DNA of 64,000 bases from assembly GCA_030390025.1 (NCBI GenBank), contig CM059432.1, positions 28,212,001 through 28,276,000 on the forward strand. The letters are read 5' to 3'. The DNA comes from Squalus acanthias (lineage: Eukaryota). The position numbers were made by a program, and so were the translations under genes. Positions 16,629 through 63,754 of this stretch are shown here, piece by piece. Numbering within the stretch: the first letter of the stretch is position 1; every line of letters begins with the position of its first letter. The notes beneath the pieces were generated by a model. The model was not told the DNA's origin. It searched no databases and was given only the letters and a program-made list of their open reading frames with translations.

Positions 16629-16629
16629 C

Positions 16630-26945: not shown

Positions 26946-27019
26946 TATTATTTAAGGCTGACCACTGTTGGATCATTGTTGGACCAGGAATTATCCATGC
27001 CTGCAAGCTGTTTACTTAC

Positions 27020-28780: not shown

Positions 28781-29571
28781 CTCTGGTTCTTTTGCCAACT
28801 GTGGGACAATATCTTTGGTGCCATTAGAAGATGGGAGGAGAAATTTGGGGAAGAAAAAAAATACTATTTGACAAATCTTCAGTTGTTTACAAAAATGCAA
28901 CACCCCAGACCAAATTGAAGTTCATGATGTCGTAGAAATTAACAAAGTTGTGTCGTCAACCAACACCACCTAGAAATAGGCTGACTGGCTGTTTGTGGGA
29001 TGTTGCTGTGCACAGATGGCTGCCACATGTGTCTACATGACAACAGTCACTTCAAAAGAGTAATGCATTTGTATGAAGCACGTGGTGATGCTCAGACAGC
29101 ATGATAAGGTGTTATATATCTGCTTTCTCTTCCAGCTAATCTCTCCATCCTAAACAAACCTAAATTTTGACAAATACCCTTTTATGAAGACGCTGCCTCT
29201 TTAAAACATTTAAATAAAAACACAACTACCTGTTATTCCATGAATTTTTCCGACAATTTGTTTGTGGCTGAATCACGCTAATACAGACTGACAAATTGCT
29301 TCCATGACATGAGAACCCAAACATTTTCTGTATAGTTTTAAGCATGATGGTGCATTTTATTAGCATGACTGAATTTTCCTGCAGTAAACAGATGGCAAGA
29401 TATTCCTTCAACCTTGTGATTCACAGGTCATTAGGCTGCAAAGCTCACCAAAATATTGCAGAAAGTCAACTACCCTAACATTTGAGCTGATAATGAATTC
29501 CCCATTACAGTGTGCTGTCTAGCACATAACTCTCCACTGTTTCAAACGTGCAATATAATCCACAGAGAGCC

Positions 29572-32500
29572 CACCCAGTCCAAGAACTCTCCCCAATATA
29601 ATGTAGGTCCCAGTCCAGGGGCTCTCCCCAATATAATGTAGGACACAGTCTAGGGACTCTCTCCTATATAATGTAGGACACAGTCTAGGGACTCTCTCCT
29701 ATATAATGTAGGACCCAGTCCAGGAGCTCTCCCCAATATAATGTAGGACACAGTCCAGGGGCTCTCCCATATATAATGTAGGACACAGTCCAGGGGCACT
29801 CCCATACATAATGTAGGACACAGTCCAGGGACTCTTCCCTATATAATGTAGGACCCAGTCCAGGGGCTCTCCCCTATATAATGTAGGACCCAGTCCAGGG
29901 GCTCACCCCTATATAATGTAGGATCCAGTCCAGGGGCTATCCCATATATAATGTAGGAACCAGTCCAGGGGCTCTCCCCTATATAATGTAGGATCCAGTC
30001 CAGGGGCTCTCCCATATATAATGTAGGACCCAGTCCAGGGGCTCTCCCATATATAATGTAGGATCCAGTCCAGGGGCTCTTCCATATATAATATAGGACC
30101 CAGTCCAGGGGCTCTCCCCTATATAATGTAGGATCCAGTCCAGGGGCTCTCCCCTATATAATGTAGGACCCAGTCCAGGAGCTCTCCCATATATAATGTA
30201 GGATCCAGTCCAGGGACACTTCCCTATATAATGTAGGACCCAGACCAGGGGCTCTCCCCAATATAATGTAGGACACAGTCTAGGGACTCTCTCCTATATA
30301 ATGTAGGACCCAGTCCAGGGGCTCTCTCCTATATAATGTAGGACCCAGTCCAGGAGATCTCCCCAATATAATGTAGGACACAGTCCAGGGGCTCTCCCAT
30401 ACATAATGTAGGACACAGCCCAGGGACTCTTCCCTATATAATGTAGGACCCAGTCCAGGGGCTCTCCCCTATATAATGTAGGACCCAGTCCAGGGGCTCT
30501 CCCCTATATAATGTAGGATCCAGTCCAGGGGCTCTCCCATATATAATGTAGGACCCAGTCCAGGGGCTCTCCCCTATATAATGTAGGATCCAGTCCAGGG
30601 GCTCTCCCATATATAATGTAGGACCCAGTCCAGGGGCTCTCCCATATATAATGTAGGATCCAGTCCAGGGTCTCTCCCATATATAATATAGGACCCAGTC
30701 CAGGGGCTCTCCCCTATATAATGTAGGACACAGTCCAGGGCTCTTCCCTATATAATGTAGGACCCAGTCCAGGGGCTCTCCCCTATATAATGTAGGATCC
30801 AGTCCAGGGGCTCTCCCCTATATAATGTAGGACCCAGTCCAGGAGCTCTCCCATATATAATGTAGGATCCAGTCCAGGGACACTTCCCCATATAATGTAG
30901 GACCCAGACCAGGGACTCTTCCCTATATAATGTATTACCCCAGTCCAGGGGCTCTCCCATATATAATGTAGGACCCAGTCCAGGGCTCTCCCCTATATAA
31001 TGTAGGACCCAGTCCAGGGGCTCTCCCCTATAAAATGTATTACCCCAGGCCAGGGGCTCTCTCCCTATATAATGTAGGACCCAGTCCAGGGGCTCTCCCC
31101 TATATAATGTATTACCCAGTCCAGGGGCTCTCTCCCTATATAATGTAGGACACAGTCCAGGGGCTATCCCCTATATAATGTAGGACCCAGCCCAGAGATC
31201 ACCCCTATAATATGTAGGACCCAGACCAGGGGTTCTCCCCTATATAATGTAGGACCCATCCAGGGCTATCTCCTATATAATATAGGACCCAGTCCAGGTG
31301 GTCGCCCCTATATAATGTAGGATCCAGTCCAGGGGATCTCCCCTATACAATGTAGATCCCACTCCAGAGATCTGTCCTATATAATGTAGGAGCCAGTCCA
31401 GACATCTGCCCTATAATATGTAGGAACTTGTCCAGAGATCTGTCCTATATAATGTAGGACCCGGTCCAGGGCTCTCCCCTATATAATGTAGATTCCAGTC
31501 CAGGGGCTCTCCCCTATATAATGAAGGGCCCAGTCCAGGAGCTCTCCCCTATATAACGTAGGACCCAGTCCAGGGGCTCTTCCCTATATAATGAAGGACC
31601 AAGTCCAGGGGCTCTACCCTATATAATTTGGGGCCAGTCTAGGTGCGCTCTCCTATATAATGTAGGACCCATCCAGGGCTATCTCCTATATAATATAGGA
31701 CCCAGTCCAGGTGGTCTCCCCTATATAATGTAGGACCCATCCAGGGCTATCTCCTATATAATGTAGGACGCAGTCCAGTGGATCTCCCCTATATAATGTA
31801 GGACCCAGTCCAGGGGATCTCCCCTATATAATGTAGATCCCACTCCAGAGATCTGTCCTATATAATGTAGGACCCAGTCCAGACATCGCCCCTATAATAT
31901 GTAGGAACCTGTCCAGAGATCTGGCCTATATAATGCAGGATCCAGTCCAGGGGCTCTCCCCTATATAATGTAGGACCCAGTCCAGGGGCTCTTCCCTATA
32001 TAATGTAGGACCCAGTCTAGGGCTCTTCCCTATTTAATGTATGACACAGTCCAGGGGCTCTACCCTATTTAATGCAGGAGCCAGTCCAGGGGCTCAGCGC
32101 TATATAATGCAGGATCGAGTCCAGGGGCTCTCCCATATATAATGTAGGACACAGACCAGGTACTCTACCCTATATAATGTAGGACCCAGTCCTGGGGCTC
32201 TCCCATTTATAATGTAGGACCCAGTCCAGGGGCGCTCCCCTATATAATGAAGGACCCAGTCCAGAGGCTCACTCCTATATAACGTAAGACCCAGTCCAGG
32301 GGCTCTCCGCTATATAATGTAGGATCTTCCGGGAGCTCTCCCCTATATAATGTAGGACACAGTCCAGGGGCTCCCCCCTATATAATGTAGGACCCAGTCC
32401 AGGGGCTCACTCCTATATAATGTAGGATCCAGTCCCGGGGCTGTCCCCTATATAATGAAGGACCCAGTCCAGGGGCTCTTCCATATATAACGTAAGACCC

Positions 32501-35500
32501 AGTCCAGGGGCTCCCCCCTATATAATGTAGGTCCCAGTCCAGGGGCTCTCCCCTATATAATGAAGGACCCAGTCCAGGGGCTCTCCCCTATATAATGTAG
32601 GACCCAGACCAGCGGCTATCTCCTATATAATATAGGACCCAGTCCAGGTGGTCGCCCCTATATAATGTAGGACCCAGTCCAGGGGATCTCCCCTATATAA
32701 TGTAGGACCCAGTCCAGGGGATCTCCCCTGTACAATGTAGATCCCACTCCAGAGATCTGTCCTATATAATGTAGGACCCAGTCCAGACATCTGCCCTATA
32801 ATATGTAGGAACCTGTCCAGAGATCTGTCCTATATAATGTAGGACCCGGTCCAGGGCTCTCCCCTATATAATGTAGATTCCAGTCCAGGGGCTCTCCCCT
32901 ATATAATGAAGGGCCCAGTCCAGGAGCTCTCCCCTATATAATGTAGGACCCAGTCCAGGGGCTCTTCCCTATATAATGAAGGACGAAGTCCAGGGGCTCT
33001 ACCCTATATAATTTGGGGCCAGTCTAGGTGCTCTCTCCTATATAATGTAGGACCCATCCAGGGCTATCTCCTATATAATGTAGGACGCAGTCCAGTGGAT
33101 CTCCCCTATATAATGTAGGACCCAGTCCAGGGGATCTCCCCTATATAATGTAGATCCCACTCCAGAGATCTGTCCTATATAATGTAGGACCCAGTCCAGA
33201 CATCTCCCCTATAATATGTAGGAACCTGTCCAGAGATCTGTCCTATATAATGCAGGATCCAGTCCAGGGGCTCTCTCCTATGTAATGAAGGACCAAGTCC
33301 AGGGGCTCTACCCTATATAATTTGGGGCCAGTCTAGGTGCTCTCCCATATATAATGTAGGATCAAGTCCAGGGCTCTCCCCTGTATAATGTAGGACACAG
33401 TCCAGGGGCTCTCTCCTATTTAATGAAGGACCCAGTCTAGGGATCTTCCCTATTTAATGTATGACACAGTCCAGGGGCTCTACCCTATTTAATGCAGGAG
33501 CTAGTCCAGGGGCTCATCGCTATATAATGCAGGATCCAGTCCAGGGGCTCTCCCATATATAATGTAGGACACAGACCAGGGACTCTTCCCTATATAATGT
33601 AGTACTCCAGTCCAGGGGCCATCTCCTATATAACATAGGACTAAGTCCAGGGACTCTCCCCTGTATAATGTAGGACCCAGTCCAGGGGCACTCCCGTATA
33701 AAATGAAGGACCATGTCCAGGAGCTCTCCCCGAAATAATGCTGGACCCAGTCCAGGAGCCCTCCGCCATATAATGTAGGACCCAGTCCAGAGGCTCTCCC
33801 CTATATAATGTAGGGCCCAGTCCAGGGGCTCTCCCCTATATAATGTAGGATCCAGTCCAGGGGCTCTCCCCTATATAATGTAGGACCCCATCCAAAGATA
33901 TCTCCAAGATAATGTAAGATCCATTCCAGGAGCTCTCTCCTATATAATGTAGGACCTAGTCCAGAGATCGCGCCTATATAATGTTGGACGCAGTCCAGGG
34001 GCTCTCCGCGATATAGTGCAGGATCGAGTCCAGGGGGTCTCTCCTATATAATGTAGGACCCAGTCCAGAGAGCTCACCCCCATATAATTTAGGACCCAGT
34101 CCAGGGGCTATCTCCTACATAATGCAGGACCCAGTCAAGGGGCTCTCCCCTATATAATGTGGGACCCAGTCCAGGGGTTCTCTCCTATATAATGTAGGAC
34201 CAAGTCCAGGAGATCTCCCTTATATAATGTAGGACCCAGTCCAGGGGGTCTCCCCTATATAATGTAGGAGCCAGTCCAGGGGCTCTCCCCTATATAATGT
34301 GGGATCTAGTCCTGGGGCTCTTCCCAATATAATGTTGGATCCAGTCCAGGTACTCTCCCCTATATAATGTAGCACCCAGTCCAGGGGCTCTCCCCTATAT
34401 AATGTAGGACCCAGTCCAGAGGCTCTCTCCTATATAACGTAAGACCCAGTCCAGGGGCTTTACGCTATATAATGTAGGATCTTCCGGGAGCTCTCCCCTA
34501 TATAATGTAGGACACAGTCGAGGGGCTCTCCCCTATATAATGTAGGACCCATTCCAGGTGCTCACTCCTATATAATGTAGGATCCAGTCCCGGGGCTGTC
34601 CCCTATATAATGAAGGACCCAGTCCAGGGGCCCTTCCATATATAACGTAAGACCCAGTCCAGGGGCTCTCCCCTATATAATGTAGGTCCCAGTCCAGGGG
34701 CTCTCCCCTATATAATGAAGGACCCAGTCCAGGGGCTCTCCCCTATATAATGTAGGACCCAGACCAGCGGCTCTCCCCTATATAATGTAGGACCCAGTCC
34801 AGGGGCTCTCCCCTATATAATGAAGGACCCAGTCCAGGGGCTCTCCCCTATATAATGTAGGACCCAGTCCAGGGGCTCTCCCCTATATAATGAAGGACCC
34901 AGTCCAGGGGCTCTCCTCTATATAATGCAGGACCCAATCCAGGGGCTCTCCCCTATATAATGTAGGACCCAGTACAGGGGCTCTCCTCTATATAATGTAC
35001 GACACAGTCCAGGGGCTATCTCCTATATAATGTAGGACCCAGCCCAGAGATCACCCCTATAATATGTAGGACCCAGACCAGGGGTTCTCCCCTATATAAT
35101 GTAGGACCCATCCAGGGCTATCTCTTATATAATATAGGACCCACTCCAGGTGGTCGCCCCTATATAATGTAGGACCCAGTCCAGGGGATCTCCCCTATAT
35201 AATGTAGGACCCAGTCCAGGGGATCTCCCCTATATAATGTAGCACCCAGTCCAGGGGCTCTCCCCTATATAATGTAGGACCCAGTCCAGAAGCTCTTCCC
35301 TATATAATGTACGACTCAGTCCAGGGGCTCTCACCTATATAATGTAGGACCCAGTCCAGAGGCTCTCCGCTATATAATGTAGGATCTTCCGGCAGCTCTC
35401 CCCGATATAATGTAGAACCCAGTCGAGGGGCTCTCCCCTATATAATGTAGGACACAGTCCAGGGGCTCTCCCCTATATAAAGTAGGATCCAGTCCCGGGG

Positions 35501-38500
35501 CTCTCCCCTATATAATGAAGGACCCAGTCCAGGGGCTCTTCCATATATAACGTAAGACCCAGTCCAGGGGCTCTCCCCTATATAATGTAGGTCCCAGTCC
35601 AGGGGCTCTCCCCTATATAATGTAGGACCCAGTCCAGGGGCTCTCCTCTATATAATGTAGGACCCAGTCCAGAGGCTCTCCCCTATATAATGTAGGACCC
35701 AGTCCAGGGGCTCTCCCCAGGTGGTCGCCCCTATATAATGTAGGACCCAGTCCAGGGGATCTCCCCTATATAATGTAGGACCCAGTCCAGGGGATCTCCC
35801 CTATACAATGTAGATCCCACTCCAGAGATCTGTCCTATATAATGTAGGACCCAGTCCAGACATCTGCCCTATAATATGTAGGAACCTGTCCAGAGATCTG
35901 TCCTATATAATGTAGGACCCGGTCCAGGGCTCTCCCCTATATAATGTAGATTCCAGTCCAGGGGCTCTCCCCTATATAATGAAGGGCCCAGTCCAGGAGC
36001 TCTCCCCTATATAATGTAGGACCAAGTCCAGGGGCTCTTCCCTATATAATGAAGGACCAAGTCCAGGGGCTCTACCCTATATAATTTGGGGCCAGTCTAG
36101 GTTCTCTCTCCTATATAATGTGGGACCCATCCAGGGCTATCTCGTATATAATATAGGACCCAGTCCAGGTGGTCTCCACTATATAATGTAGGACCCATCC
36201 AGGGCTATCTCCTATATAATGTAGGACGCAGTCCAGTGGATCTCCCCTTATAATGTAGGACCCAGTCCAGGGGATCTCCCCTATATAATGTAGATCCCAC
36301 TCCAGAGATCTGTCCTATATAATGTAGGACCCAGTCCAGACATCTCCCCTATAATATGTAGGAACCTGTCCAGAGATATGTCCTATATAATGCAGGCTCC
36401 AGTCCAGGGGCTCTCCCCTACATAATGTAGGACCCAGTCCAGGGGCTCTTCCCTATATAATGTAGGACCCAGTCCAGGGGCTCTCTCCTATGTAATGAAG
36501 GACCAAGTCCAGGGGCTCTACCCTATATAATTTGGGGCCAGTCTAGGTGCTCTCCCCTATATAATGTAGGATCAAGTCCAGGGCTCTCCCCTATATAATG
36601 TAGGACCCAGTCCAGGGGCTCTCTCCTATTTAATGAAGGACCCAGTCTAGGGATCGTCCCTATTTAATGTATGACACAGTCCAGGGGCTCTACCCTATTT
36701 AATGCAGGAGCCAGTCCAGGGGCTCATCGCTATATAATGTAGTACTCCAGTCCAGGGGCTATCTCCTATAAAACATAGGACCAAGTCCAGGGGCTCTCCC
36801 CTGTATAATGTAGAACTCAGTCCAGGGGCTCTCCCGTACATAATGTAGGACCAATCCCAGGAGCTCTCCTATATATAACGTAGGACCCAGTCCAGAGATC
36901 ACTCCTATATAATGTAGGACCCAGTAAAGCTGCTCCGTCCTATATAACGTAGGACCCAGTCCAGGGGCACTCCCATATAAAATGAAGGACCCAGTCCAGG
37001 GTTCTCTCCTATATAATGTAGGACCCAGACCAGGGGCTTTCCCATATATATCGCAGGACCCAGTCCAGAGGCTCACTCCTATTTAATGTAGGATGCAATC
37101 CAGGGGCTCTCCCCTATATAATGTAGGATCCAGTCCGGGGTTCTCTCCTATATAATGTAGGACCCAGTCCAGAGATCTCCCCGAAATAATGCTGGACCCA
37201 GTCCAGGGGCCCTCCGCCATATAATGTAGGACCCAGTCCAGAGGCTCTCCCCTATATAATGTAGGGCCCAGTCCAGCGGCTCTCCTCTATATAATGTAAG
37301 ATCCATTCCAGGAGCTCTCTCCTATATAATGTAGGACCTAGTCCAGAGATCGCGCCTATATAATGTTGGACGCAGTCCAGGGGCTCTCCGCGATATATTG
37401 TAGGATCGAGTCCAGGAGCTCTCTCCTATATAATGTAGGACCCAGTCCAGAGAGCTCACCCCCATATAATTTAGGACCCAGTCCAGGGGCTATCTCCTAC
37501 ATAATGCAGGACCCAGTCAAGGGGCTCTCCCCTATATAATGTAGGACCCAGTCCAGGGGCTCTCTCCTATATAATGTAGGACCCAGTCCAGGGGGTCTCC
37601 CCTATATAATGTAGGAGCCAGTCCAGGGGCTCTCCCCTATATAATGTGGGATCTAGTCCCGGGGCTCTTCCCAATATAATGTTGGATCCAGTCCAGGTAC
37701 TCTCCCCTATATAATGTAGGACCCAGTCCTGGGGCTCTCCCGTTTATAATGTAGATTCCAGTCCAGGGGCTCTCCCGTTTATAATGTAGGACCCAGTCCA
37801 GGGGTTCTCCCCTATATAATGTAGGACCAGTCCAGGGGCTCTTCCCTATATAATGTACGACTCAGTCCAGGGGCTCTCCTCTATATAATGTAGGACCCAG
37901 TCCAGAGGCTCTCTCCTATATAACGTAAGACCCAGTCCAGGGGCTCTCCGCTATATAATGTAGGATCTTCCGGGAGCTCTCCCCGATATAATGTAGGACG
38001 CAGTCGAGGGGCTCTCCCCTATATAATGTAGGACCCAGTCCAGGGGCTCTCCCCTATATAATGTAGGATCCAGTCCCGGGGCTCTCCCCTATATAATGAA
38101 GGACCCAGTCCAGGGGCTCTTCCATATATAACGCAAGACCCAGTCCAGGGGCTCTCCCCTATATAATGTACGTCACAATCCAGGGGCTCTCCCCTATATA
38201 ATGAAGGACCCAGTCCAGGGGCTCTCCCCTATATAATGTAGGACCCAGTCCAGCGGCTCTCCCCTATATAATGTAGGACACAGTCCAGGGGCTCTCCCCT
38301 ATATAATGAAGGACCCAGTCCAGGGACTCTCCCCTATATAATGTAGGACCCAGTCCAGGGGCTCTCCCCTATATAATGAAGGACCCAGTCCAGGGGCTCT
38401 CCTCCATATAATGTAGGACCCAGTCCAGGGGCTCTCCCCTATATAATGTAGGACCCAGTCTAGGGGCTCTACCCTATATAATGTAGGACCCAGTCCAGGG

Positions 38501-41500
38501 GCTCTCCTCTATATAATGAATGACGCAGTCCAGGGGCTCTCCCCTATATAATGAAGGACCCAGTCCAGAGGCACTCCCCTATATAATGTAGGACCCAGTC
38601 CAGGGGCTCTCCCCTATATAATGTAGGTTCCAATCCAGGGGCTCTCCCCTATATAATGTAGGACCCAGTCCAGGGGCTCTCCTCTATATAATGTAGGATC
38701 CAGTCCAGGGGCTCTCCTCTATATAATGTAGGACCCAGTCCAGGGGCTCTCCCCTATATAATGTAGGACCCAGTCCAGGGGCTCTACCCTATATAATGTA
38801 GGACCAAGTCCAGAGGCTCTCCTCTATATAATGTAGGATCCAGTCCAGGGGCTCTCCTCTATATAATGTAGAATCCAGTCCAGACATCGCTCCTATATAA
38901 TGTAGGACCCAGTCCAGGGGCTCATCCCTATATAATGTAGGATCCAGTCCAGGGGCTCTCCCCTATATAATGTAGGATCCAGTCCAGGGGCTCTCCTCTT
39001 TATAATGTAGGACCCAGTCCAGGGGCTCTCCCCTATATAATGTAGAATCCTGTCCAGAGATCTCTCCTATATAATGTAGGACCCAGTCCAGGGGCTCTCC
39101 CCTATATAATGTAGAATCCTGTCCAGAGATCTCTCCTATATAATGTAGGACCCAGTCCAGGGGCTCTCCCGTTTATAATGTAGATTCCAGTCCAGGGGCT
39201 CTCCCGTTTATAATGTAGGACCCAGTCCAGGGGCTCTCCCCTATATAATGTAGGATCCTGTCCAGAGATCTCGCCTATATAATGTAGGACCCATTCCAGG
39301 GCTCCACCCCTATTTAATGTCGGACACAGTCCAGTGTCTCCCATCTAAAATGTAGGACCCATTCCATGCCTCTCCCCTATATAATTTAGGACCCAGTCCA
39401 AAGATCTCTCCTATATTACGTAGGACCCAGTCCAGGAGCTCAATCCTATACAATGAAGGACCCAATCGAGGATCTCACCCCTATATAATGAAGGACCCAG
39501 TCCAGGGGCTCTCCCCTATATAATGTAGGATCTGCCGGGAGCTCTCCCCGATATAATATAGGACCCAGTCGAGGGGCTCTCCCCTATATAATGTAGGACC
39601 CAGTCCAGGGGCTCTCCCCTATACAATGTAGGATCCAGTCCCGGGGCTCTCCCCTATATAATGAAGGACCCAGTCCAGGGGCTCTTCCATGTATAACGTA
39701 AGAACCAGTCCAGGGGCTCTCCCCTATATAATGTACGTCACAGTTCAGGGGCTCTCCCCTATATAATGAAGGACCCAGTCCAGTGGCTCTCCCCTATATA
39801 ATATAGGACCCAGTCCAGCGGCTCTCCCCTATATAACGCAAGACCCAGTCCAGGGGCTCTCCCCTATATAATGTACGTCACAATCCAGGGGCTCTCCCCT
39901 ATATAATGAAGGACCCAGTCCAGGGGCTCTCCCCTATATAATGTAGGACCCAGTCCAGCGGCTCTCCCCTATATAATGTAGGACCCAGTCCAGGGGCTCT
40001 CCCCTATATAATGAAGGACCCAGTCCAGGGACTCTCCCCTATATAATGTAGGACCCAGTCCAGGGGCTCTCCCCTATATAATGAAGGACCCAGTCCAGGG
40101 GCTCTCCTCCATATAATGTAGGACCCAGTCCAGGGGCTCTCCCCTATATAATGTAGGACCCAGTCTAGGGGCTCTACCCTATATAATGTAGGACCCAGTC
40201 CAGGGGCTCTCCTCTATATAATGAATGACGCAGTCCAGGGGCTCTCCCCTATATAATGAAGGACCCAGTCCAGGGGCACTCCCCTATATAATGTAGGACC
40301 CAGTCCAGGGGCTCTCCCCTATATAATGTAGGTTCCAATCCAGGGGCTCTCCCCTATATAATGTAGGACCCAGTCCAGGGGCTCTCCTCTATATAATGTA
40401 GGATCCAGTCCAGGGGCTCTCCTCTATATAATGTAGGACCCAGTCCAGGGGCTCTCCCCTATATAATGTAGGACCCAGTCCAGGGGCTCTCCTCTATATA
40501 ATGTAGAATCCTGTCCAGAGGCTCTCCTCTATATAATGTAGGATCCAGTCCAGGGGCTCTCCTCTATATAATGTAGGACCCAGTCCAGGGGCTCTCCCAT
40601 ATATAATGTAGGACCCAGTCCAGGGGCTCTTCCATATATAACGTAAGACCCAGTCCAGGGACTCTCCCCTACATAATGTAGAGTCCAGTCCAGACATCGC
40701 TCCTATATAATGAAGGACCCAGTCCAGGGGCTCATCCCTATATAATGTAGGATCCAGTCCAGGGGCTCTCCCCTATATAATGTAGGATCCAGTCCAGGGG
40801 CTCTCCTCTTTATAATGTAGGACCCAGTCCAGGGGCTCTCCCCTATATAATGTAGAATCCTGTCCAGAGATCTCTCCTATATAATGTAGGACCCAGTCCA
40901 GGGGCTCTCCCCTATATAATGTAGAATCCTGTCCAGAGATCTCTCCTATATAATGTAGGACCCAGTCCAGGGGCTCTCCCGTTTATAATGTAGATTCCAG
41001 TCCAGGGGCTCTCCCGTTTATAATGTAGGACCCAGTCCAGGGGCTCTCCCCTATATAATGTAGGATCCTGTCCAGAGATCTCGCCTATATAATGTAGGAC
41101 CCATTCCAGGGCTCCACCCCTATTTAATGTCGGACACAGTCCAGTGTCTCCCATCTAAAATGTAGGACCCCTTCCATGCCTCTCCCCTATATAATTTAGG
41201 ACCCAGTCCAAAGATCTCTCCTATATAACGTAGGACCCAGTCCAGGAGCTCAATCCTATACAATGAAGGACCCAATCGAGGATCTCACCCCTATATAATG
41301 AAGGACCCAGTCCAGGGGCTCTCCCCTATATAATGTAGGATCTGCCGGGAGCTCGCCCCGATATAATGTAGGACCCAGTCGAGGGGCTCTCCCCTATATA
41401 ATGTAGGACCCAGTCCAGGGGCTCTCCCCTATACAATGTAGGATCCAGTCCCGGGGCTCTCCCCTATATAATGAAGGACCCAGTCCAGGGGCTCTTCCAT

Positions 41501-50500: not shown

Positions 50501-53500
50501 GGGCTCTCCCCTATATAATGAAGGGCCCAGTCCAGGAGCTCTCCCCTATATAATGTAGGACCCAGTCCAGGGGCTCTTCCCTATATAATGAAGGACCAAG
50601 TCCAGGGGCTCTACCCTATATAATTTGGGGCCAGTCTAGGTGCTCTCTCCTATATAATGTAGGACCCATCCAGGGCTATCTCCTATATAATATAGGACCC
50701 AGTCCAGGTGGTCTCCCCTATATAATGTAGGACCCATCCAGGGCTATCTCCTATATAATATAGGACCCAGTCCAGGTGGTCACCCCTATATAATGTAGGA
50801 CCCATCCAGGGCTATCTCCTATATAATGTAGGACGCAGTCCAGTGGATCTCCCCTATATAATGTAGGACCCAGTCCAGGGGATCTCCCCTATATAATTTA
50901 GATCCCACTCCAGAGATCTGTCCTATATAATGTAGGACCCAGTCCAGACATCTCCCCTATAATATGTAGGAACCTGTCCAGAGATCTGTCCTATATAATG
51001 CAGGATCCAGTCCAGGGGCTCTCTCCTATGTAATGAAGGATCAAGTCTAGGGGCTCTCTCCTATGTAATGAAGGACCAAGTCCAGGGGCTCCACCCTATA
51101 TAATTTGGGGCCAGTCTAGGTGCTCTCCCCTATATAATGTAGGATCAAGTCCAGGGCTCTCTCCTATTTATTGAAGGACCCAGTCTAGGGATCTTCCCTA
51201 TTTAATGTATGACACATTCCAGGGGCTCTACCCTATTTAATGCAGGAGCCAGTCCAGGGGCTCATCGCTATATAATGCAGGATCCAGTCCAGGGGATCTC
51301 CCATATATAATGTAGGACACAGACCAGGGGCTCTTCCCTACATAATGTAGTACTCCAGTCCAGGGGCTATCTCCTATATAACATAGGACCAGGTCCAGGG
51401 GCTCTCCCCTGTATAATGTAGGATACAGTCCAGGGGCTCTCCCGTATATAATGTAGGACCACTCCCAGGAGCTCTCCCCTATATAATGTAGGACCCAGTC
51501 CAGAGATCTCTCCTATATAATGTAGGACCCAGTAAAGGTGCTCCGTCCTATATAATGTAGGACCCAGTCCAGGGGCACTCCCGTATATAATGAAGGACCA
51601 AGTCCAGGAGCTCTCCCCTAAATAATGTAGGACCCAGACCAGGGGCTTTCCCATATATATCGCAGGACCCAGTCCAGAGGCTCACTCCTATTTAATGTAG
51701 GATGCAATCCAGGGGCTCTCCCCTATATAATGTAGGATCCAGTCCAGGGCTCTCTCCTATATAATGTAGGATCCAGTCCGGGGCTCTCTCCTATATAATG
51801 TAGGACCCAGTACAGAGATCTCCCCGAAATAATGCTGGACCCAGTCCAGGGGCCCTCTGCCATATAATGTAGGACCCAGTCCAGGGGCTCTCCCCTATAT
51901 AATGTAGGACCCAGTCCAGAGATCTCCCCGAAATAATGCTTGACCCAGTCCAGGGGCCCTCTGCCATATAAATGTAGGACCCAGTCCAGGGGCTCTCCCC
52001 TATATAATGTAGGATCCAGTCCAGGGGCTCTCCCCTATATAATGTAGGACCCAGTCCACAGATCGCGCCGAAATAATGTTGGACGCAGTCCAGGGGCTCT
52101 CCGCGATATAGTGTATGATCGAGTCCAGGGGCTCTCTCCTATATAATGTAGGACCCAGTCCAGGGGCTCTCTCCTACATAATGCAGGACCCAGTCAAGGG
52201 GCTCTCCCCTGTATAATGTGGGACCCAGTCCAGGAGCTCTCTCCTATATAATGTAGGACCAAGTCCAGGAGATCTCCCTTATATAATGTAGGACCCAGTC
52301 CAGGGGGTCTCCCCTATATAATGTAGGAGCCAGTCCAGGGGCTCTCCCCTATATAATGTGGGATCTAGTCCCGGGGCTCTTCCCAATATAATGTTGGATC
52401 CAGTCCAGGTACTCTCCCCTATATAATGTAGGACCCAGTCCAGGGGCTCTCCCGTTTATAATGTAGATTCCAGTCCAGGGGCTCTCCCGTTTATAATTTA
52501 GGACCCAGTCCAGGGGCTCTCCCCTATATAATGTAGGACCCAGTCCAGGGGCTCCTCCCTATATAATGTACGACTCAGTTCAGGGGCTCTCCTCTATATA
52601 ATGTAGGACCCAGTCCAGGGGCTCTCTCCTATATAACGTAAGATCCAGTCCAGGGGCTCTCCGCTATATAATGTAGGATCTTCCGGGAGCTCTCCCCTAT
52701 ATAATGTAGGACCCAGTCGAGGGGCTCTCCCCTATATAATGTCGAACCCAGTCCAGGGGCTCTCCCCTATATAATGTAGGATCCAGTCCCGGGGCTCTCC
52801 CCTATATAATGAAGGACCCAGTCCAGGGGCTCTTCCATATATAACGTAAGACCCACTCCAAGGGCTCTCCCCTATATAATGCAGGTCCCAGTCCAGGGGC
52901 TCTCCCCTATATAATGAAGGACCCAGTCCAGGGGCTCTCCCCTATATAATGTAGGACCCAGTCCAGGGGCTCTCCCCTATATAATGTAGGATCCAGTCCA
53001 GGGGCTCTCCTCTATATAATGTATGATCCAGTCCAGGGGCTGACCCCTATATAATGAGGGTCCAGTCGAGCGGCTCTCCTCTATATAATGTAGTATCCAG
53101 TCCAGGGGCTCCCCTCTATATAATGTAGGACCCAGTCCAGGGGCTCTCCCCTATGTAATGTAGGACCCAGTCCAGGGGCTCTCCCCTATATAATGTAGGA
53201 CCCAGTCCAGGGGCTCTCCCCTATATAATGTAGGACCCAGTCCAGGGGCTATTCCATATATAACGTAAGACCCAGTCCAGGGGCTCTCCCCTATATATTG
53301 GAGGTCCCAGACCAGGGGCTCTCCCCTATATAATGAAGGACCCAGTCCAGGGGCTCTCCCCTATATAATGTAGGACCCAGTCCTGGGGTTCTCCCCTATA
53401 TAATGTAGAACCCAGTCCAGGGGCTCTCCCCTATATAATGTGGGACCCAGTCCAGGGGCTCTCCCCAATATAATGTAGGATCCAGTCCAGGGGCTCTCCC

Positions 53501-56500
53501 CTATATAATGTAGGACACAGTCCAGGGGCTATCCCCTATATAATGTAGGACCCAGTCCCGGGGCTCTCCCCTATATAATGTGGGACCCAGTCCAGGGGCT
53601 CTCCCCAATATAATGTAGGATCCAGTCCAGGGGCTCTCCTCTATATAATGTAGGACCCAGACCAGGGGCATTCCCATATATATCGCAGGACCCAGTCCAG
53701 AGGCTCACTCCTATTTAATGTAGGATGCAATCCAGGGGCTCTCCCCTATATAATGTAGGATCCAGTCCAGGGCTCTCTCCTATATAATGTAGGATCCAGT
53801 CCGGGGCTCTCTCCTATATAATGTAGGACCCAGTCCAGAGATCTCCCCGAAATAATGCTGGACCCAGTCCAGGGGCCCTCCGCCATATAATATAGGACCC
53901 AGTCCAGGGGCTCTCCCCTATATAATGTAGGATCCAGTCCAGGGGCTCTCCCCTATATAATGTAGGACCTAGTCCAGAGATCGCGCCGAAATAATGTTGG
54001 ACGCAGTCCAGGGGCTCTCCGCGATTTAGTGTAGGATCGAGTCCAGGGGCTCTCTCCTATATAATGTAGGACCCAGTCCAGAGAGCTCACCCCCATATAA
54101 TTTAGGACACAGTCCAGGGGCTCTCTCCTACATAATGCAGGACCCAGTCAAGGGGCTCTCCCCTATCTAATGTGGGACCCAGTCCAGGGGCTCTCTCCTA
54201 TATAATGTAGGACCAAGTCCAGGAGATCTCCCTTATATAATGTAGGACCCAGTCCAGGGGGTCTCCCCTATATAATGTAGGAGCCAGTCCAGGGGCTCTC
54301 CCCTATATAATGTGGGATCTAGTCCCGGGGCTCTTCCCAATATAATGTAGGACCAAGTCCAGGAGATCTCCCTTATATAATGTAGGACCCAGTCCAGGGG
54401 CTCTCCCCTATATAATGTAGGACCCAGTCCAGGGGCTCTCCCGTTTATAATGTAGATTCCAGTCCAGGGGCTCTCCACTATATAATGTAGGACCCAGTCC
54501 AGGGGCTCTTCCCTATATAATGTAGGACCCAGTCCAGGGACTCTCCCGTTTATAATTTAGGACCCAGTCCAGGGGCTCTCCACTATATAATGTAGGACCC
54601 AGTCCAGGGGCTCTTCCCTATATAATGTACGACTCAGTCCAGGGGCTCTCCTCTATATAATGTAGGACCCAGTCCAGGGGCTCTCTCCTATATAACGTAA
54701 GACCCAGTCCAGGGGCTCTCCGCTATATAATGTAGGATCTTCCGGGAGCTCTCCCCTATATGATGTAGGACGCAGTCCAGGGGCTCTCCCCTACATAATG
54801 TAGGACCCAGTCCAGGGGCTCTCCCCTATATAATGTAGGATCCAGTCCCGGGGCTCTCCCCTATATAATGAAGGACCCAGTCCAGGGGCTCTTCCATATA
54901 TAACGTAAGACCCAGTCCAGGGGCTCTCCCCTATATAATGTAGGTCCCAGTACAGGGGCTATCCCCTATATAATGAAGGACCCAGTCCAGGGGCTCTCCC
55001 CTGTATAATGTAGGACCCAGTCCAGGGGCTCTTCCCTATATAATGTAGGACCCAGTCCAGGGGCTCTCCCCTATATAATGAAGGACCCAGTCCAGGGGCT
55101 CTCCCCTATATAATGTAGGACCCAGTCCGGGGGCTCTCCCCTATATAATGTAGGATCAAGTCCAGTGGCTCTCCTCTATATAATGTAGAATCCAGTCCAG
55201 GGGCTGACCCCTATATAATGAGGGTCCAGTCGAGGGGCTCTCCTCTATATAATGTAGTATCCAGTCCAGGGGCTCTCCTCTATATAATGTAGGACCCAGT
55301 CCAGGGGCTCTCCCCTATATAATGTAGGACCCAGTCCAGGGGCTCTCCCCTATATAATGTAGGACCCAGTCCAGGGGCTCTCCCCTATACAATGTAGGAC
55401 CAAGTCCAGGGGCTCTCCCCTATATAATGAAGGACCCAGTCCAGGGGCTCTTCCATATATAATGTAAGACCCAGTCCAGGGGCTCTCCCCTATATAATGG
55501 AGGTCCCAGTCCAGGGGCTCTCATCTATATAATGAAGGACCCAGTCCAGGGGCTCTCCCCTATATAATGTAGGACCCAGTCCAGGGGCTCTCCCCTATAT
55601 AATGTTGGATCCAGTCCAGGGGCTCTCCTCTATATAATGTAGGATCCAGTCCAGGGGCTCACCCCTATATAATGAGGGTCCAGTCGAGGGGCTCTCCCCT
55701 ATATAATGTAGGACCCAGTGAAGGGGCTCTCCCCTATATAATGTAGGACCCAGTCCAGTGGCTCTCCCCTATATAATGTAGGACCCAGTCCAGGGGCTCT
55801 CCTCTATATAATGTAGGATCCAGTCCAGGGGCTCTCCCCTATATAATGTAGGACCCAGTCCAGGGGCTCTCCCCTATATAATGTAGGATCCAGTCCAGGG
55901 GCTCTCCCCTATATAATGTAGGACCCAGTCCAGGGGCTCTCCTCTATATAATGTAGGATCCATTCCAGGGGCTCTCCTCTATATAATGTAGGACCCAGTC
56001 CAGGGGCTCTACCCTATATAATGTAGGACCCAGTCCAGGGGCTCTCCTCTATATAATGTAGGATCCAGTCCAGGGGCTCTCCTCTATATAATGTAGGACC
56101 CAATCCAGGGGCTCTCCCATATATAATGTTGGACCCAGTCCAGGGGCTCTCCCCTATATAATGAAGGACCCAGTCCAGGGGCTCTTCCATATATAACGTA
56201 AGACCCAGTCCAGGGGCTCTCCCCTATATAATGTAGGTCCCAGTCCAGGGGCTCTCCCCTATATAATGAAGGACCCAGTCCAGGGGCTCTCCCCTATATA
56301 ATGTAGGACCCAGTCCAGGGGCTCTCCCCTATATAATGAGGGTCCAGTCGAGGGGCTCTCCTCTATATAATGTAGGATCCAGTCCAGGGGCTCTCCTCTA
56401 TATAATGTAGGACCCAGTCCAGGGGCTCTCCCCTATATAATGAGGGTCCAGTCGAGGGGCTCTCCTCTATATAATGTAGGATCCAGTCCAAGGGCTCTCC

Positions 56501-59500
56501 TCTATATAATGTAGGACCCAGTCCAGCGGCTCTCCTCTATATAATGTAGGACCCAGTCCAGGGGCTCTCCTCTATATAATGTAGGACCCAGTCCAGGGGC
56601 TCTCCCCTATATAATGTAGGACCCAGTCCAGGGACTCTCCCCTATATAATCTAGGACCCAGTCCAGGGGCTCTCCCCTATATAATGTAGGATCTAGTCCA
56701 GGGGCTCTCCCCAATATAATGTAGGACCCAGTCCAGGGGCTCTCCTCTATATAATGTACGACCCAGTCCAGAGGCTCTCCCCTATATAATGTAGGACCCA
56801 GTCCAGGGGCTCTCCCCTATATAATGTAGGACCCAGTCCAGGGGCTCTCCCCGATATAATGTATTACCCCAGTCCAGGGGCTCTCTCCCTATATAATGTA
56901 GGACACATTCCAGAGGCTCTCCCCTATATAATGTAGGACCCAGTCCAGGGGCTCTCCCCTATATAATGTAGGACCCAGTCCAGGGGCTCTCCCCGATATA
57001 ATGTATTACCCCAGTCCAGGGGCTCTCTCCCTATATAATGTAGGACACATTCCAGAGGCTCTCCCCTATATAATGTAGGACCCAGTCCAGGGGCTCTCCC
57101 CTATATAATGTAGGACCCAGTCCAGGGGCTCTCCCCGATATAATGTATTACCCCAGTCCAGGGGCGCTCTCCCTATATAATGTAGGACACATTCCAGGGG
57201 CTATCTCCTATATAATGTAGGACCCAGCCCAGAGATCACCCCTATAATATGTGGGACCCAGACCAGGGGTTCTTCCCTATATAATGTAGGACAAATCCAG
57301 TGCTATCTCCTATATAATATAGGACCCAGTCCAGTTGGTCGCCCCTATATAATGTAGGACCCAGTCCAGGGGATCTCCCCTATATAATGTAGGACCAAAG
57401 TCCAGGGGATCTCCCCTATACAATGTAGATCCCACTCCAGAGATCTGTCCTATATAATGTAGGATCCAGTCCAGACATCTGCCCTATAATATGTAGGAAC
57501 CTGTCCAGAGATCTGTCCTGTATAATGTAGGACCCGGTCCACGGCTCTCCCCTATATAATATAGATTCCAGTCCAGGGGCTCTCTCCTATATAATGAAGG
57601 GCCCAGTCCAGGAGCTCTCCCCTATATAATGTAGGACCCAGTCCAGGGGCTCTTCCCTTTGTAATGAAGGAGCAAGTCCAGGGGCTCTACCCTATATAAT
57701 TTGGGGCCAGTCTAGGTGCTCTCTCCTATATAATGTAGGACCCATCCAGGGCTATCTCCTATATAATATAGGACCCAGTCCAGGTGGTCTCCCCTATATA
57801 ATGTAGGACCCATCCAGGGCTATCTCCTATATAATGTAGGACGCAGTCCAGTGGATCTCCCCTATATAATGTAGGACCCAGTCCAGGGGATCTCCCCTAT
57901 ATAATGTAGATCCCACTCCAGAGATCTGTCCTATATAATGTAGGACCCAGTCCAGACATCTCCCCTATAATATGTAGGAACCTGTCCAGAGATCTGTCCT
58001 ATATAATGCAGGATCCAGTCCAGGGGCTCTCCCCTATATAATGTAGGACCCAGTCCAGGGCTCTTCCCTACATAATGTAGGACCCAGTCCAGGGGCTCTC
58101 TCCTATGTAATGAAGGACCAAGTCCAGGGGCTCTACCCTATATAATTTGGGGCCAGTCTAGGTGCTCTCCCCTATATAATGTAGGATCCTGTCCAGGGCT
58201 CTCCCCTGTGTAATGTCGCACCCAGTCCAGGGGCTCTCTCCTATTTAATGAAGGACCCAGTCTAGGGATCTTCCCTATTTAATGCAGGAGCCAGTCCAGG
58301 GGCTCTCCCATAAATAATGTAGGACACAGACCAGGGACTCTTCCCTATATAATGTAGTACTCCAGTCCAGGGGCTATCTCCTATATAACATAGGACCAAG
58401 TCCAGGGGCTCTCCCCTGTATAATGTAGGACACAGTCCAGGGGCTCTCCCGTATATAATGTAGGACCACTCCCAGGAGCTCTCCCATATATAATGTAGGA
58501 CCCAGTCCAGAGATCTCTCCTGTATAATGTAGGATCCAGTCCGGGGCTCTCTCCTATATAATGTAGGATCCATTCCAGGAGCTCTCTCCTATATAATGTA
58601 GGACCTAGTCCAGAGATCGCGCCTATATAATGTTGGACGCAGTCCAGGGGCCCTCCGCGATATAGTGTAGGATCGTGTCCAGGGGCTCTCTCCTATATAA
58701 TGTAGGACCCAGTCCAGGGGCTCTCCTCTATATAATGTAGGACCCAGTCCAGGGGCTCTCCCCTATATAATGTAGGACCCAGTCCAGGGGCTCTCCTCTA
58801 TATAATGTAGGACCCAGTCCAGGGGCTCTCCTCTATATAATGTAGGACCCAGTCCAGGGGCTCTCCTCTATATAATGTAGGACCCAGTCCAGGGGCTCTC
58901 CCCTATATAATGTAGGACCCAGTCCAGGGGCTCTCCCCTATATAATGTAGGACCCAGTCCAGGGGCTCTCCCCTATATAATCTAGGACCCAGTCCAGGGG
59001 CTCTCCCCTATATAATCTAGGACCCAGTCCAGGGGCTCTCCCCTATATAATGTAGGACCCAGTCCAGGGGCTCTCCCCTATATAATGTAGGACCCAGTCC
59101 AGGGGCTCTCCCCGATATAATGTATTACCCCAGTCCAGGGGCTCTCTCCCTATATAATGTAGGACACATTCCAGAGGCTCTCCCCTATATAATGTAGGAC
59201 CCAGTCCAGGGGCTCTCCCCTATATAATGTAGGACCCAGTCCAGGGGCTCTCCCCGATATAATGTATTACCCCAGTCCAGGGGCTCTCTCCCTATATAAT
59301 GTAGGACACATTCCAGAGGCTCTCCCCTATATAATGTAGGACCCAGTCCAGGGGCTCTCCCCTATATAATGTAGGACCCAGTCCAGGGGCTCTCCCCGAT
59401 ATAATGTATTACCCCAGTCCAGGGGCTCTCTCCCTATATAATGTAGGACACATTCCAGGGGCTATCTCCTATATAATGTAGGACCCAGCCCAGAGATCAC

Positions 59501-62500
59501 CCCTATAATATGTAGGACCCAGACCAGGGGTTCTTCCCTATATAATGTAGGACAAATCCAGTGCTATCTCCTATATAATATAGGACCCAGTCCAGGTGGT
59601 CGCCCCTATATAATGTAGGACCCAGTCCAGGGGATCTCCCCTATATAATGTAGGACCAAATTCCAGGGGATCTCCCCTATACAATGTAGATCCCACTCCA
59701 GAGATCTGTCCTATATAATGTAGGATCCAGTCCAGACATCTGCCCTATAATATGTAGGAACCTGTCCAGAGATCTGTCCTGTATAATGTAGGACCCGGTC
59801 CACGGCTCTCCCCTATATAATATAGATTCCAGTCCAGGGGCTCTCTCCTATATAATGAAGGGCCCAGTCCAGGAGCTCTCCCCTATATAATGTAGGACCC
59901 AGTCCAGGGGCTCTTCCCTATATAATGAAGGAGCAAGTCCAGGGGCTCTACCCTATATAATTTGGGGCCAGTCTAGGTGCTCTCTCCTATATAATGTAGG
60001 ACCCATCCAGGGCTATCTCCTATATAATATAGGACCCAGTCCAGGTGGTCTCCCCTATATAATGTAGGACCCATCCAGGGCTATCTCCTATATAATGTAG
60101 GACGCAGTCCAGTGGATCTCCCCTATATAATGTAGGACCCAGTCCAGGGGATCTCCCCTATATAATGTAGATCCCACTCCAGAGATCTGTCCTATATAAT
60201 GTAGGACCCAGTCCAGACATCTCCCCTATAATATGTAGGAACCTGTCCAGAGATCTGTCCTATATAATGCAGGATCCAGTCCAGGGGCTCTCCCCTATAT
60301 AATGTAGGACCCAGTCCAGGGCTCTTCCCTACATAATGTAGGACCCAGTTCAGGGGCTCTCTCCTATGTAATGAAGGACCAAGTCCAGGGGCTCTACCCT
60401 ATATAATTTGGGGCCAGTCGAGGTGCTCTCCCCTATATAATGTAGGATCCTGTCCAGGGCTCTCCCCTGTGTAATGTCGCACCCAGTCCAGGGGCTCTCT
60501 CCTATTTAATGAAGGACCCAGTCTAGGGATCTTCCCTATTTAATGCAGGATCCAGTCCAGGGGCTCTCCCATAAATAATGTAGGACACAGACCAGGGACT
60601 CTTCCCTATATAATGTAGTACTCCAGTCCAGGGGCTATCTCCTATATAACATAGGACCAAGTCCAGGGGCTCTCCCCTGTATAATGTAGGACACAGTCCA
60701 GGGGCTCTCCCGTATATAATGTAGGACCACTCCCAGGAGCTCTCCCATATATAATGTAGGACCCAGTCCAGAGATCTCTCTTATATAATGTAGGACCCAG
60801 TCCAGAGATCTCCCCGAAATAATGCTTGACCCAGTCCAGGGGCCCTCCGCCATATAATGTAGGACCCAGTCCAGGGGCTCTCCCCTATATAATGTAGGAC
60901 CCCATCCAAAGATATCTCATATATAATGTAAGATCCATTCCAGGAGCTCTCTCCTATATAATGTAGGACCTAGTCCAGAGATCGCGCCTATATAATGTTG
61001 GACGCAGTCCAGGGGCCCTCCGCGATATAGTGTAGGATCGTGTCCAGGGGCTCTCTCCTATATAATGTAGGACCTAGTCCAGAGAGCTCACCCCCATATA
61101 ATTTAGGACCCAGTCCAGGGGCTCTCTCCTACATAATGCAGGACCCAGTCCAGGGGCTCTCTCCTATATAATGTAGGACCCAGTCCAGGGGGTCTCTCCT
61201 ATATAATGTAGGAGCCAGTCCAGGGGCTCTCCCCTATATAATGTGGGATCTAGTCCCGGGGCTCTTCCCAATATAATGTAGGAGCCAGTCCAGGGGCTCT
61301 CCCCTATATAATGTGGGATCTAGTCCCGGGGCTCTTCCCAATATAATGTTGGATCCAGTCCAGGTACTCTCCCCTATATAATGTAGGAACCAGTCCAGGG
61401 GCTCTCCCGTTTATAATGTAGATTCCAGTCCAGTGGCTCTCCCGTTTATTTTGTAGGACCCAGTCCAGGGGCTCTCCCCTATATAATGTAGGACCCAGTC
61501 CAGGGGCTCTTCCCTATATAATGTACGACTCAGTCCAGGGGCTCTCCCCTATATAATGTAGGACCCAATCCCGGGGCTCTCCCCTATATAATGAAGGACC
61601 CAGTCCAGGGGCTCTTCCATATATAACGTAAGACCCAGTCCAGGGGCTCTACCCTATATAATGTAGGTCCCAGTCCAGGGGCTCGCCCCTATATAATGTA
61701 GGATCCAGTCCAGGGGCACTCCTCTATATAATGTAGGATCCAGTCCAGGGGCTCACCCCTATATAATGAGGGTCCAGTCGAGGGGCTCTCCTCTATATAA
61801 TGTAGGATCCAGTCCAGGGGCTCTCCTCTATATAATGTAGGACCCAGTCCAGGGGCTCTACCCTATATAATGTAGGACCCAGTCCAGGGGCTCTCCTCTT
61901 TATAATGTAGGATCCAGTCCAGGGGCTCTCCTCTATATAATGTAGGACCCAGTCCAGGGGCTCTCCCATATATAATGTAGGACCCAGTCCAGGGGCTCTT
62001 CCATATATAACGTAAGACCCAGTCCAGCGACTCTCCCCTACATAATGTAGAATCCAGTCCAGACATCGCTCCTATATAATGTAGGACCCAGTCCAGGGGC
62101 TCATCCCTATATAATGTAGGATCCAGTCCAGGGGCTCTCCCCTATATAATGTAGGATCCAGTCCAGGGGCTCTCCTCTTTATAATGTAGGACCCAGTCCA
62201 GGGGCTCTCCCCTATATAATGTAGAATCCTGTCCAGAGATCTCTCCTATATAATGTAGGAACCAGACCAGGGGCTCTCCCCTATATAATGTAGAACTAAG
62301 TCCAGGGGCACTTCCCTATATAATGTAGGATCCAGTCCAGGGGCTCTCCCCTATATAATGTAGAACTAAGTCCAGGGGCACTTCCCTATATAATGTAGGA
62401 CCCAGACCAGGGGCACTTCCCTATATAATGTATGACCCAGTCCAGGGGCTCTCCTATATAATGTAGAATCCAGTCCAGAGATCTCTCCTATATAATGTCG

Positions 62501-63417
62501 GAACCAGACCAGGGGCTCTTTCCAATATAATGTAGGACCCAGTCCAGAGATCCTTCCTATATAATGTAGGAACCCAGTCTTGGGGCTCTCTCCTATATAA
62601 TGTCGGATCCATTCCAGGGGCTCTCCCCTATATAATGTAGGACCCCTGTCTCGGAGCTCTCCCCTATATAATGTAGGACCCAGTCAGTGATCTCGCCTGT
62701 ATAATGTAGGACCCAGTCCAGAGATCTCTCCCCTATATAATGTAGGTCCCAGTCCACGTGCTCTCCCCTATATAATGTAGGATCCAGTCTAGGGGCTCTC
62801 CCCTATATAATGTAGGACCTAGTCAAGGGGCTCTCTCCTATATAATGTAGGACCAATTCCAGGGGCTCTCCCGTATATAATGTAGGACCCAGTCCAAAAA
62901 GCACTCCTCTATATAATGTAATACCCAGTACAGATGCTCTTTTCTATATACAGGAAACTTTCGTTTATCCGGCATCAACGGGACCGGCGTGGTGCCGGTT
63001 TATCGAAAGTACCGGATAACGGAGAGATATATCTACCGAGGCTATTTTTAACAAAGAGACTCCAGGCAGCACGGGAGAATCAACTCCTGCTACTGTAGTG
63101 TTTCGGAATTCTGACAGCGCCAGGAGGCCGAGTAGTGGCACTTTTGAAAAGTACCCCTACTGACTAAATCGGCGTTCGTGGACTCGGACTCGGACTCGGG
63201 ATCGGCAACATTGCCGGTTATTTGAGAGGAGTTTTCGGAGCACTCGGCGTTCGCGGAGACTCGACTGCGACTCGGCAACATTGCCGGTTATTTGAGAGGA
63301 GTTTTCGGAGGATGATTTTTGCCGGTTAAGCGAGAATTCCGGATATTTGGGTGCCGGATAAACGAAAGTTTCCTGTAATGTATTATCCAGTCCAGGTGTT
63401 CTCCCCTATATAATGTA
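29572..63417. repeat. ~33.8-kb tandem satellite, 35-bp monomer ATGTAGGACCCAGTCCAGGGGCTCTCCCCTATATA, about 965 copies, intronic in TG
   Basis: The 35-bp period is directly visible (atgtagga at 29881, 29916, 29951). Single orientation throughout, substitution and 1-bp indel variants, degenerate edges. Copy number is length divided by 35. Confidence 0.98.
62951..63375. mobile_element. Tc1/mariner (pogo/Tigger-like) non-autonomous MITE, 425 bp
   Basis: Perfect 24-bp TIRs (caggaaactttcgtttatccggca / tgccggataaacgaaagtttcctg) and a TA TSD at 62949-62950 and 63376-63377. Internal 37-bp direct repeat ggcaacattgccggttatttgagaggagttttcggag. Confidence 0.92.
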
Positions 63418-63536
63418 CTACATTACACCAGTGACTGCACCAAATTAAAAAAGTATGAAAAGTGCTTTGGTACGTTTCTGAGGGGTGATGAAGTCCCATA
63501 TAAATGCAAGTCTTTTCTTTTAAAGATTTATTGTAC

Positions 63537-63734
63537 CTCTGTCAATTGTTAAGTGACTCAACACGAAGCCATCACAGCACTGTTCCATGCCACAGGTCTG
63601 TCTGCAGAAATGATGTACATCTGTTAAGCTCGAACCATCTGCGGAAAAAGCCAATGCCTGGTATACGCCTGTAATCACGTTACGAAAATCTGTCCGTACG
63701 AAGGTCTTTTGGAATGAAGTGGTGAATTCATGAC
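63537..63734 (-). CDS. TG: Thyroglobulin exon (approx. human exon 26), type-3 repeat region
   Basis: Acceptor ttttctccag, donor gtacaa, 198 nt, phase 1-1. Translates GHEFTTSFQKTFVRTDFRNVITGVYQALAFSADGSSLTDVHHFCRQTCGMEQCCDGFVLSHLTIDR, which matches recalled human TG (..QKRFEPTGFQNMLSGLY..LTDAHLFCLLACDRDLCCDGFVLTQV..). Confidence 0.93.
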
Positions 63735-63754
63735 CTGGAGAAAATTAAGAACAT

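Follow-up and report, generated by a model that had tools for sequence, protein, structure and literature searches.

A giant single-locus minisatellite of probably near-neutral nature in a thyroglobulin intron of Squalus acanthias

The stretch of Squalus acanthias DNA analysed here (64,000 nucleotides, positions 28,212,001 to 28,276,000 of contig CM059432.1 of GenBank assembly GCA_030390025.1, hereafter the window) carries part of the thyroglobulin gene, TG, on its minus strand, and one of the TG introns is occupied for most of its length by a tandem array of a 35-bp unit. The array is a real giant intronic minisatellite, limited to a single locus, common to related species and most likely near-neutral for the gene that hosts it. 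As such, it represents a known type in clean form, and it is undescribed in the papers found by an open-access literature search that excluded supplements.

The host gene was identified through the two exons that flank the array. The open frame at 63523-63744 (minus strand) corresponds to residues 1681-1742 of human TG (E 2.6e-16) and that at 27015-27230 (minus strand) to residues 1744-1801 (E 9.2e-7), with thyroglobulin as the only protein matched in PDB in both cases (three distinct sequences); the closest named proteins in the exon comparison are skate thyroglobulins (64% over the exon). Since the two residue ranges adjoin in the human protein, the exons are consecutive in TG. The intervening intron begins with GTACAA and ends with TTGCAG, and the exons join in frame with no stops, so that both the assignment to TG and the intronic position of the array, as proposed in an earlier note on this DNA, are confirmed. 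The gene features are the following:

63537..63734, minus strand: TG coding exon on the donor side, 198 bp, human TG residues ~1681-1744, which we take to be the equivalent of mammalian exon 26
27188..63536, minus strand: TG intron, 36,349 bp long with GT...AG ends, and the second longest among the 41 gaps mapped
27018..27187, minus strand: TG coding exon on the acceptor side, ~170 bp, human TG residues 1744-1801

Tandem Repeats Finder, one of the checks proposed earlier, returned one period-35 array at 29573-62940 (957.5 copies, 84% neighbour matches, score 45,082), and segmentation against the consensus gave 958 units reaching ~62950, for a main array of 33.4 kb in a window with no N letters. 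Most units are 35 bp long (734 of the 958), with 141 of 34, 48 of 36, 31 of 33 and 4 of other lengths; 420 are distinct, the commonest one occurring 82 times and 253 unit types only once, and the mean identity to the consensus, 91%, stays level over the length of the array (0.88-0.93 per 2 kb). Towards the splice donor, a sequence of smaller elements follows the main array:

29573..62950, plus strand: main array, ~958 copies of the 35-bp unit in 420 distinct variants, single-locus
62951..63375, no strand assigned: young 425-bp miniature inverted-repeat transposable element (MITE) whose terminal inverted repeats are of ~24 bp (CAGGAAAC...) and which is flanked by TA at either end, one copy within the array end
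63376..63417, plus strand: terminal remnant of the array, ~1.2 degenerate units, 42 bp, nhmmer E 5.9e-9, present in the related organisms A, C and D
63418..63521, plus strand: an abundant short interspersed repeat in a copy truncated at its 5' end, located between donor and remnant, presumably the tail of a short interspersed nuclear element (SINE)-like repeat; of 44 matches in the 1.58 Mb of genome sampled, 33-43 extend over the stretch

Two statements of the earlier note on the geometry of the array survive in part. That it fills 93% of the intron is correct for the span 29572-63417 (93.1%), which includes the 425-bp MITE, the pure array amounting to 91.8%; that it starts ~120 bp from the donor is correct for the 42-bp remnant (119 bp) and not for the main array, which is 586 bp away behind the MITE, a position that leaves any meaning of its nearness to the donor unsupported.

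The length of the intron was given correctly, and sets it apart from the four further introns that are complete in the window (~6.5, 1.2, 4.3 and 0.6 kb). Subtraction of array, remnant and MITE leaves 2.5 kb, and therefore the array explains, as had been claimed, almost the whole of the size excess. The comparison with the four window introns is misleading; TG has another intron of ~123 kb. When skate TG (P0047) was mapped on 464 kb around the window, 42 exon hits were chained, leaving 41 gaps with a median of 3.8 kb, the largest being of 123.3, 36.4 (the array intron), 29.6 and 20.3 kb. The longest one (L040-L052) is found about 41-164 kb ahead of the window start, presumably where a long mammalian intron hosts the SLA gene.

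The unit is confined to one locus, making the array single-locus. Exact 38-, 20- and 17-mers of the unit gave 75, 264 and 218 matches in the 3.71-Gb genome, all on the forward strand, and the window alone holds 75, 264 and 218 of them, so that the genome-wide monomer search that had been called for ended with 264 of 264 exact 20-mer matches at the TG locus. A profile of the unit reached E 3.4 at best over 1.58 Mb of other sequence, and within the window its sole match outside the array is the remnant. These results led to rejection of a dispersed satellite family, and lack of any match of the profile in the adjacent exons to rejection of an exon-derived unit. With a head-to-tail unit of 35 bp, the array falls in the 10-100 bp range of giant minisatellites, and its location is intronic in a gene that is spliced, as judged from the consecutive TG exons, the GT-AG ends and the in-frame join; as one locus of 33 kb, it does not correspond to classical satellite DNA, which is multi-locus or very long and heterochromatic, often with higher-order organization.

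The contact at 63418 between the remnant and the truncated SINE-like copy might indicate that the unit was derived from a transposable element, e.g. through a fold-back at the broken end of this fragment, and 10 bases of the unit are indeed the reverse complement of element sequence at the junction. Such a match is not significant: compared with 36 element copies, the unit reached a median best local score of 20, shuffled units scored 17.4 +/- 1.5 and 10% of 200 shuffles reached 20, which leaves a SINE-derived unit unsupported. By taking into account also that the left flank shows no repeat match, and that the adjacent exons show none to the unit, a transposon origin appears very improbable.

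The donor-side end of the array was then compared with that of related organisms, designated A, C, D and E, by using positions 63420-63760 as the query; 22 sequencing runs were listed, 20 of them contained at least part of it, and eight were compared in detail. The exon-bearing contigs of X1 and X2 (organism A, 3 differences in 385 bp) and of X8 (organism C, 20 in 385) span 63376-63760, and past 63376 they continue in letters that do not fit the MITE. That of X8 steps back 39 bases, entering another unit, and four X8 contigs end in the consensus unit; one X2 contig steps back 35 bases. The summed depth on the remnant versus the exon (138 versus 12 for X1, 2,014 versus 13 for X2 and 1,081 versus 18 for X8) reads as multi-copy and is not a copy number. 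In organism D (X9, 19 differences in 383) remnant and exon are in one piece, with a depth of 9.7 throughout and no extra unit contigs on the remnant. For organism E DNA (X12), the alignment to the window ends at 63485, and a separate contig with a depth of ~25 (single copy, 5.6) covers the remnant with no link to TG, which provides a weak hint.

The unit and the donor-side end are, therefore, found in independent read sets, and the comparison with related species suggested in the earlier note places this end at the same position of the intron in relatives ~5% diverged. Because the remnant is at the orthologous place in organisms C and D, the donor-side end is older than the split from them, and the MITE came later. 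With the slow substitution rate of sharks, on which this figure leans, the age of the array would be in the range of tens of millions of years.

The MITE is considered young because the 40 copies scored of 1,121 candidates in the genome, which are distributed on many chromosomes, are 98-100% identical; TA flanks were present in all five of the other copies inspected, and no coding frame of note was found. Terminal inverted repeats, TA flanks, the lack of a notable coding frame and the many near-identical copies of its family are all features in common with Tc1/mariner-type MITEs, to which we take it to belong, the peculiarity being that here the 425-bp insertion is a passenger at the edge of an array. 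In X1, X2 and X8 it is missing from the contigs that bear the exon, which makes the insertion recent or polymorphic. Both MITE and remnant are uncopied, as would be expected of an array edge lying outside turnover, and the MITE together with the donor-side end in common gives a relative clock for turnover of the array, with the insertion as a potential marker. At the same edge, where the last unit gives way to the truncated SINE-like copy, a short inverted repeat (window 63408-63426) made of that unit and the beginning of the copy extends across their junction, and several other SINE-like copies are truncated at the identical point.

The internal structure of the array reveals past changes of its length, as implied by duplications of blocks of units, of which the two largest are:

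40158..46721, plus strand: tandem block duplication, two copies of 3,282 bp (94 units) with 1 mismatch
56796..60760, plus strand: second block duplication, offset 2,261 bp, ~99% identical over ~1.7 kb

Overall, duplicated blocks of at least six identical units hold 417 of the 958 units, with graded identity and with shorter blocks at offsets from 4 to 813 units. No higher-order period was detected at offsets 1-30, where unit identity does not exceed 3.1%; the longest perfect tract is of three units, and the mean pairwise distance among 35-mers is 13%. Duplications of kb-sized blocks in the absence of a higher-order period point to growth by unequal exchange of such blocks, or by similar recombination, repeated over time with point mutation between events. 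The array would have begun locally from intron sequence and likely expanded in place by unequal crossing-over or a similar process, as opposed to slippage of perfect tracts, and it is likely tolerated as near-neutral filler that would be spliced out with the intron.

The single mismatch that distinguishes the 3,282-bp block from its neighbour is also what an assembly duplication could give, e.g. if two haplotypes or reads had been joined in tandem, and no read spanning the array was seen, so that a real array could have an assembled length that is in part inflated or collapsed. This is an unlikely explanation by taking into account the absence of N gaps and the graded identity of the other duplications (~99% and lower), as expected of real events over time. 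Furthermore, the two large near-identical duplications account for only ~5.5 of 33.4 kb, 253 unit types have a single occurrence, and the depth of the remnant in X1, X2 and X8, with the values reported above and the same reservation on copy number, is far above that of a single copy.

The special character attributed to the TG array in the earlier note finds no support once the rest of the genome is considered. In a background sample of 118 evenly spaced 10-kb stretches from 26 large contigs, arrays of period of at least 10 contain 6.2% of the bases, and arrays of at least 1 kb and at least 5 kb are present in nine and five stretches, respectively. Four of the latter five were extended, to 79.2 kb (32-bp unit, on the TG chromosome), 23.5 kb (33/34-bp unit), 14.9 kb (11-bp unit) and ~8.5 kb, and the fifth one (L078), beside a gap of 500 N, was left unextended. 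Thus, two arrays of the same kind as that of TG were included in the sample, and they likewise show kb-scale internal duplications; with three of the 118 stretches falling in arrays of 15-79 kb, large arrays are common in this genome. By rough estimate, the genome may contain ~1,000 arrays of at least 20 kb with a 30-35-bp unit (Poisson range ~130-3,800) and ~2,000 of at least 10 kb, with the TG array being an estimated one of several hundred to a few thousand private arrays. The presence of equally large private arrays elsewhere leads to the view that the TG array is likely the product of near-neutral repeat growth and not a gene-tuning device. In published work, shark genomes are described as having regions dominated by simple tandem repeats and introns enlarged by repeats (10.1101/2025.06.08.657570, PMC10620051); the possible ~1,000 private arrays of at least 20 kb on large chromosomes bear on how shark introns and genomes grow.

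Some details of the arrays found in this survey may be recorded. The 79.2-kb one (G000:C8:114,991,852-115,071,034) is gap-free, with ~2,476 copies of its unit and internal duplications of 3.3 and 2.2 kb, and a weak C2H2 zinc-finger frame is found ~5 kb to its right (L196:6211-6420). That of 23.5 kb, on C9 at 140.00-140.06 Mb (L139, L187-L191), is among smaller arrays of 20- and 28-bp units. The C9 unit and the local consensus of the C8 array (L131) have an 11-base motif in common, which is one base off in the whole-array consensus and may be due to chance.

With respect to splicing, the contigs of interest derive from X6, X7 and X17, which are RNA-type by guess, no sequencing run being on record as RNA. 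A contig of X17 (organism E, ~8% diverged in the exon as judged from DNA run X12) departs from the exon at the donor, after which 26 of 30 letters agree with the start of the next exon. By joining the donor exon directly to the next one, it suggests that the two TG exons are spliced together in this relative, as the earlier note required of the flanking exons. Within the reach of these data, neither of the two outcomes that would have refuted the earlier note (a misjoined or much shorter array, or flanking exons not spliced to each other) was encountered. The X6 and X7 contigs stop at 63580 and 63575, respectively, short of the donor, and are silent on the array-intron junction; the other end of the X7 contig matches the upstream exon (30 of 30 letters) and corresponds to the upstream junction.

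On the transcribed strand of the array (33.4 kb), 2 AATAAA, 25 ATTAAA, 29 GTGAG and 4 AGGTRAG were counted, while polypyrimidine-YAG acceptors and G-quadruplex (G4) motifs are both 0; the flank has 0.74 AATAAA and 2.0 GTRAG per kb, and both are rarer in the array. A special RNA or DNA structure was also considered, as the unit resembles three small palindromes, and rejected, with four consensus units folding no better than shuffled ones (z values of +0.07, -0.01, -0.45 and -0.43 versus 300 unit shuffles). The array would be tolerated because its unit is devoid of acceptor-like or poly(A)-like signals, and because introns of greater length are already present in the gene. Transcription of the intron, if it occurs, would yield the repeat RNA in passing. 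For mouse Tg, PMC11959613 reports expression at ~23,000 TPM (transcripts per million), long transcription loops and delayed splicing, along with prompt splicing of a 54-kb intron; because of the latter, the 36-kb intron of the shark gene would need no special machinery on present evidence.

Among known systems, the TG array best fits a giant single-locus intronic variable number tandem repeat (VNTR) like human TRACT, rather than the megabase introns of Drosophila. TRACT is a VNTR with a 30-bp unit in intron 3 of CACNA1C, spans 3-30+ kb and contains variant units, and in fibroblasts and testis its long alleles have been associated with lower expression (PMC13131567). The two arrays have in common the single locus, the intronic position in a normally spliced gene, a unit of ~30 bp, a length of tens of kb and the mosaic of unit variants. 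They differ in that TRACT is human-specific, with growth proposed to occur via perfect tracts, whereas the TG array has perfect tracts of at most three units and kb-scale block duplications, and is common to several species; length polymorphism and effects on expression are demonstrated features of TRACT and hypothetical ones of the TG array. On avian dot chromosomes, introns show 'sequence stuttering' (Hron et al. 2026, PMC12954441), which is similar in consisting of a locally expanded imperfect tandem motif confined to one intron with intact coding exons. It affects most introns of a gene on repeat-dense dot microchromosomes, whereas the TG array is on a 154-Mb chromosome, in a mapped gene with no other large array, and is not exon-derived.

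The analogy with Drosophila Y-linked genes drawn in the earlier note is not supported. The introns of the Y-loop genes kl-3 and kl-5 contain megabases of 5-bp satellites (AATAT, AAGAC) on the heterochromatic Y and need the RNA-binding proteins Blanks and Heph (PMC6508621). The TG intron resembles them in being mostly tandem repeat, and in belonging to a gene strongly expressed in one cell type, if TG expression is assumed from mammals; it is of 36 kb, has a private 35-bp unit and is shorter than another, ordinary TG intron of 123 kb, which sets it outside the class of megabase introns made of simple satellite.

The array might instead be a functional or at least consequential modulator of TG, along the lines of the earlier note, as it would be if its length or variants altered elongation, splicing or chromatin in thyroid cells, or if its RNA bound proteins on the TG transcription loop. 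The lower expression associated with long TRACT alleles in fibroblasts and testis (PMC13131567) and the ~23,000 TPM and delayed splicing of mouse Tg (PMC11959613) would fit with such a role, as would the retention of the donor-side end in organisms A, C and D and the 10% of the mapped TG intron length that is found in the array intron. The role is nevertheless judged improbable: no RNA structure or processing motif is enriched, the units drift freely (with the 13% mean pairwise distance given above), similar or larger arrays with unrelated units exist elsewhere in the genome, the donor-side end has tolerated the insertion of a MITE and TG has an intron of 123 kb. There is also little likelihood that the array is a long-lived selected feature of shark TG, retained by several species at one intron position and with ~950 motif copies per nascent transcript, through which length or variants would tune elongation, splicing or loop structure of the most highly transcribed thyroid gene. 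Were this the case, it would represent, as its visible member, a class comprising hundreds of private arrays of 10-80 kb, in effect intron stuttering on a large scale outside birds.

Near-neutrality is still the preferred and likely interpretation, with several points weighing against it. Retention of the donor-side end in several species is an outcome that purifying selection, too, could have brought about. Organism E alone provided the exon junction, and the status of its array is uncertain; the transcribed strand of the array does hold the 25 ATTAAA and 29 GTGAG variants. The genome-wide estimate of array number is based on 2-3 matches, and no further array in the 400 kb that surround the window is longer than 1.45 kb, so that the TG array is an outlier locally. 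Finally, a position in introns could not be shown for the large background arrays (with Pfam giving four weak matches in 150 of 366 candidate frames), and it is therefore not established that genes tolerate arrays of this sort.

From a practical standpoint, one 35-mer oligonucleotide would find hundreds of targets in every nascent molecule of TG RNA, and the rest of the genome would offer it no exact match. It would be a ready probe for TG transcription and splicing in cartilaginous fish, whereas tiled probes were needed in mouse (PMC11959613).

A few other features of the window deserve mention. At 63552-63553, two positions of the donor-side exon differ from organism A, changing two residues; position 63552 is A in the window and T in all four relatives compared (A, C, D and E), being either private to the window or an assembly error. 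A 31-bp minisatellite with ~10 copies and 95% matches is found at 6370-6792, inside the 29.6-kb TG intron. The minus strand at 1455-3155 contains a 567-residue open frame for the reverse transcriptase of a long interspersed nuclear element (LINE), presumably CR1-like by its appearance, and more LINE fragments are present at ~15550-17500 and ~24950-26000.

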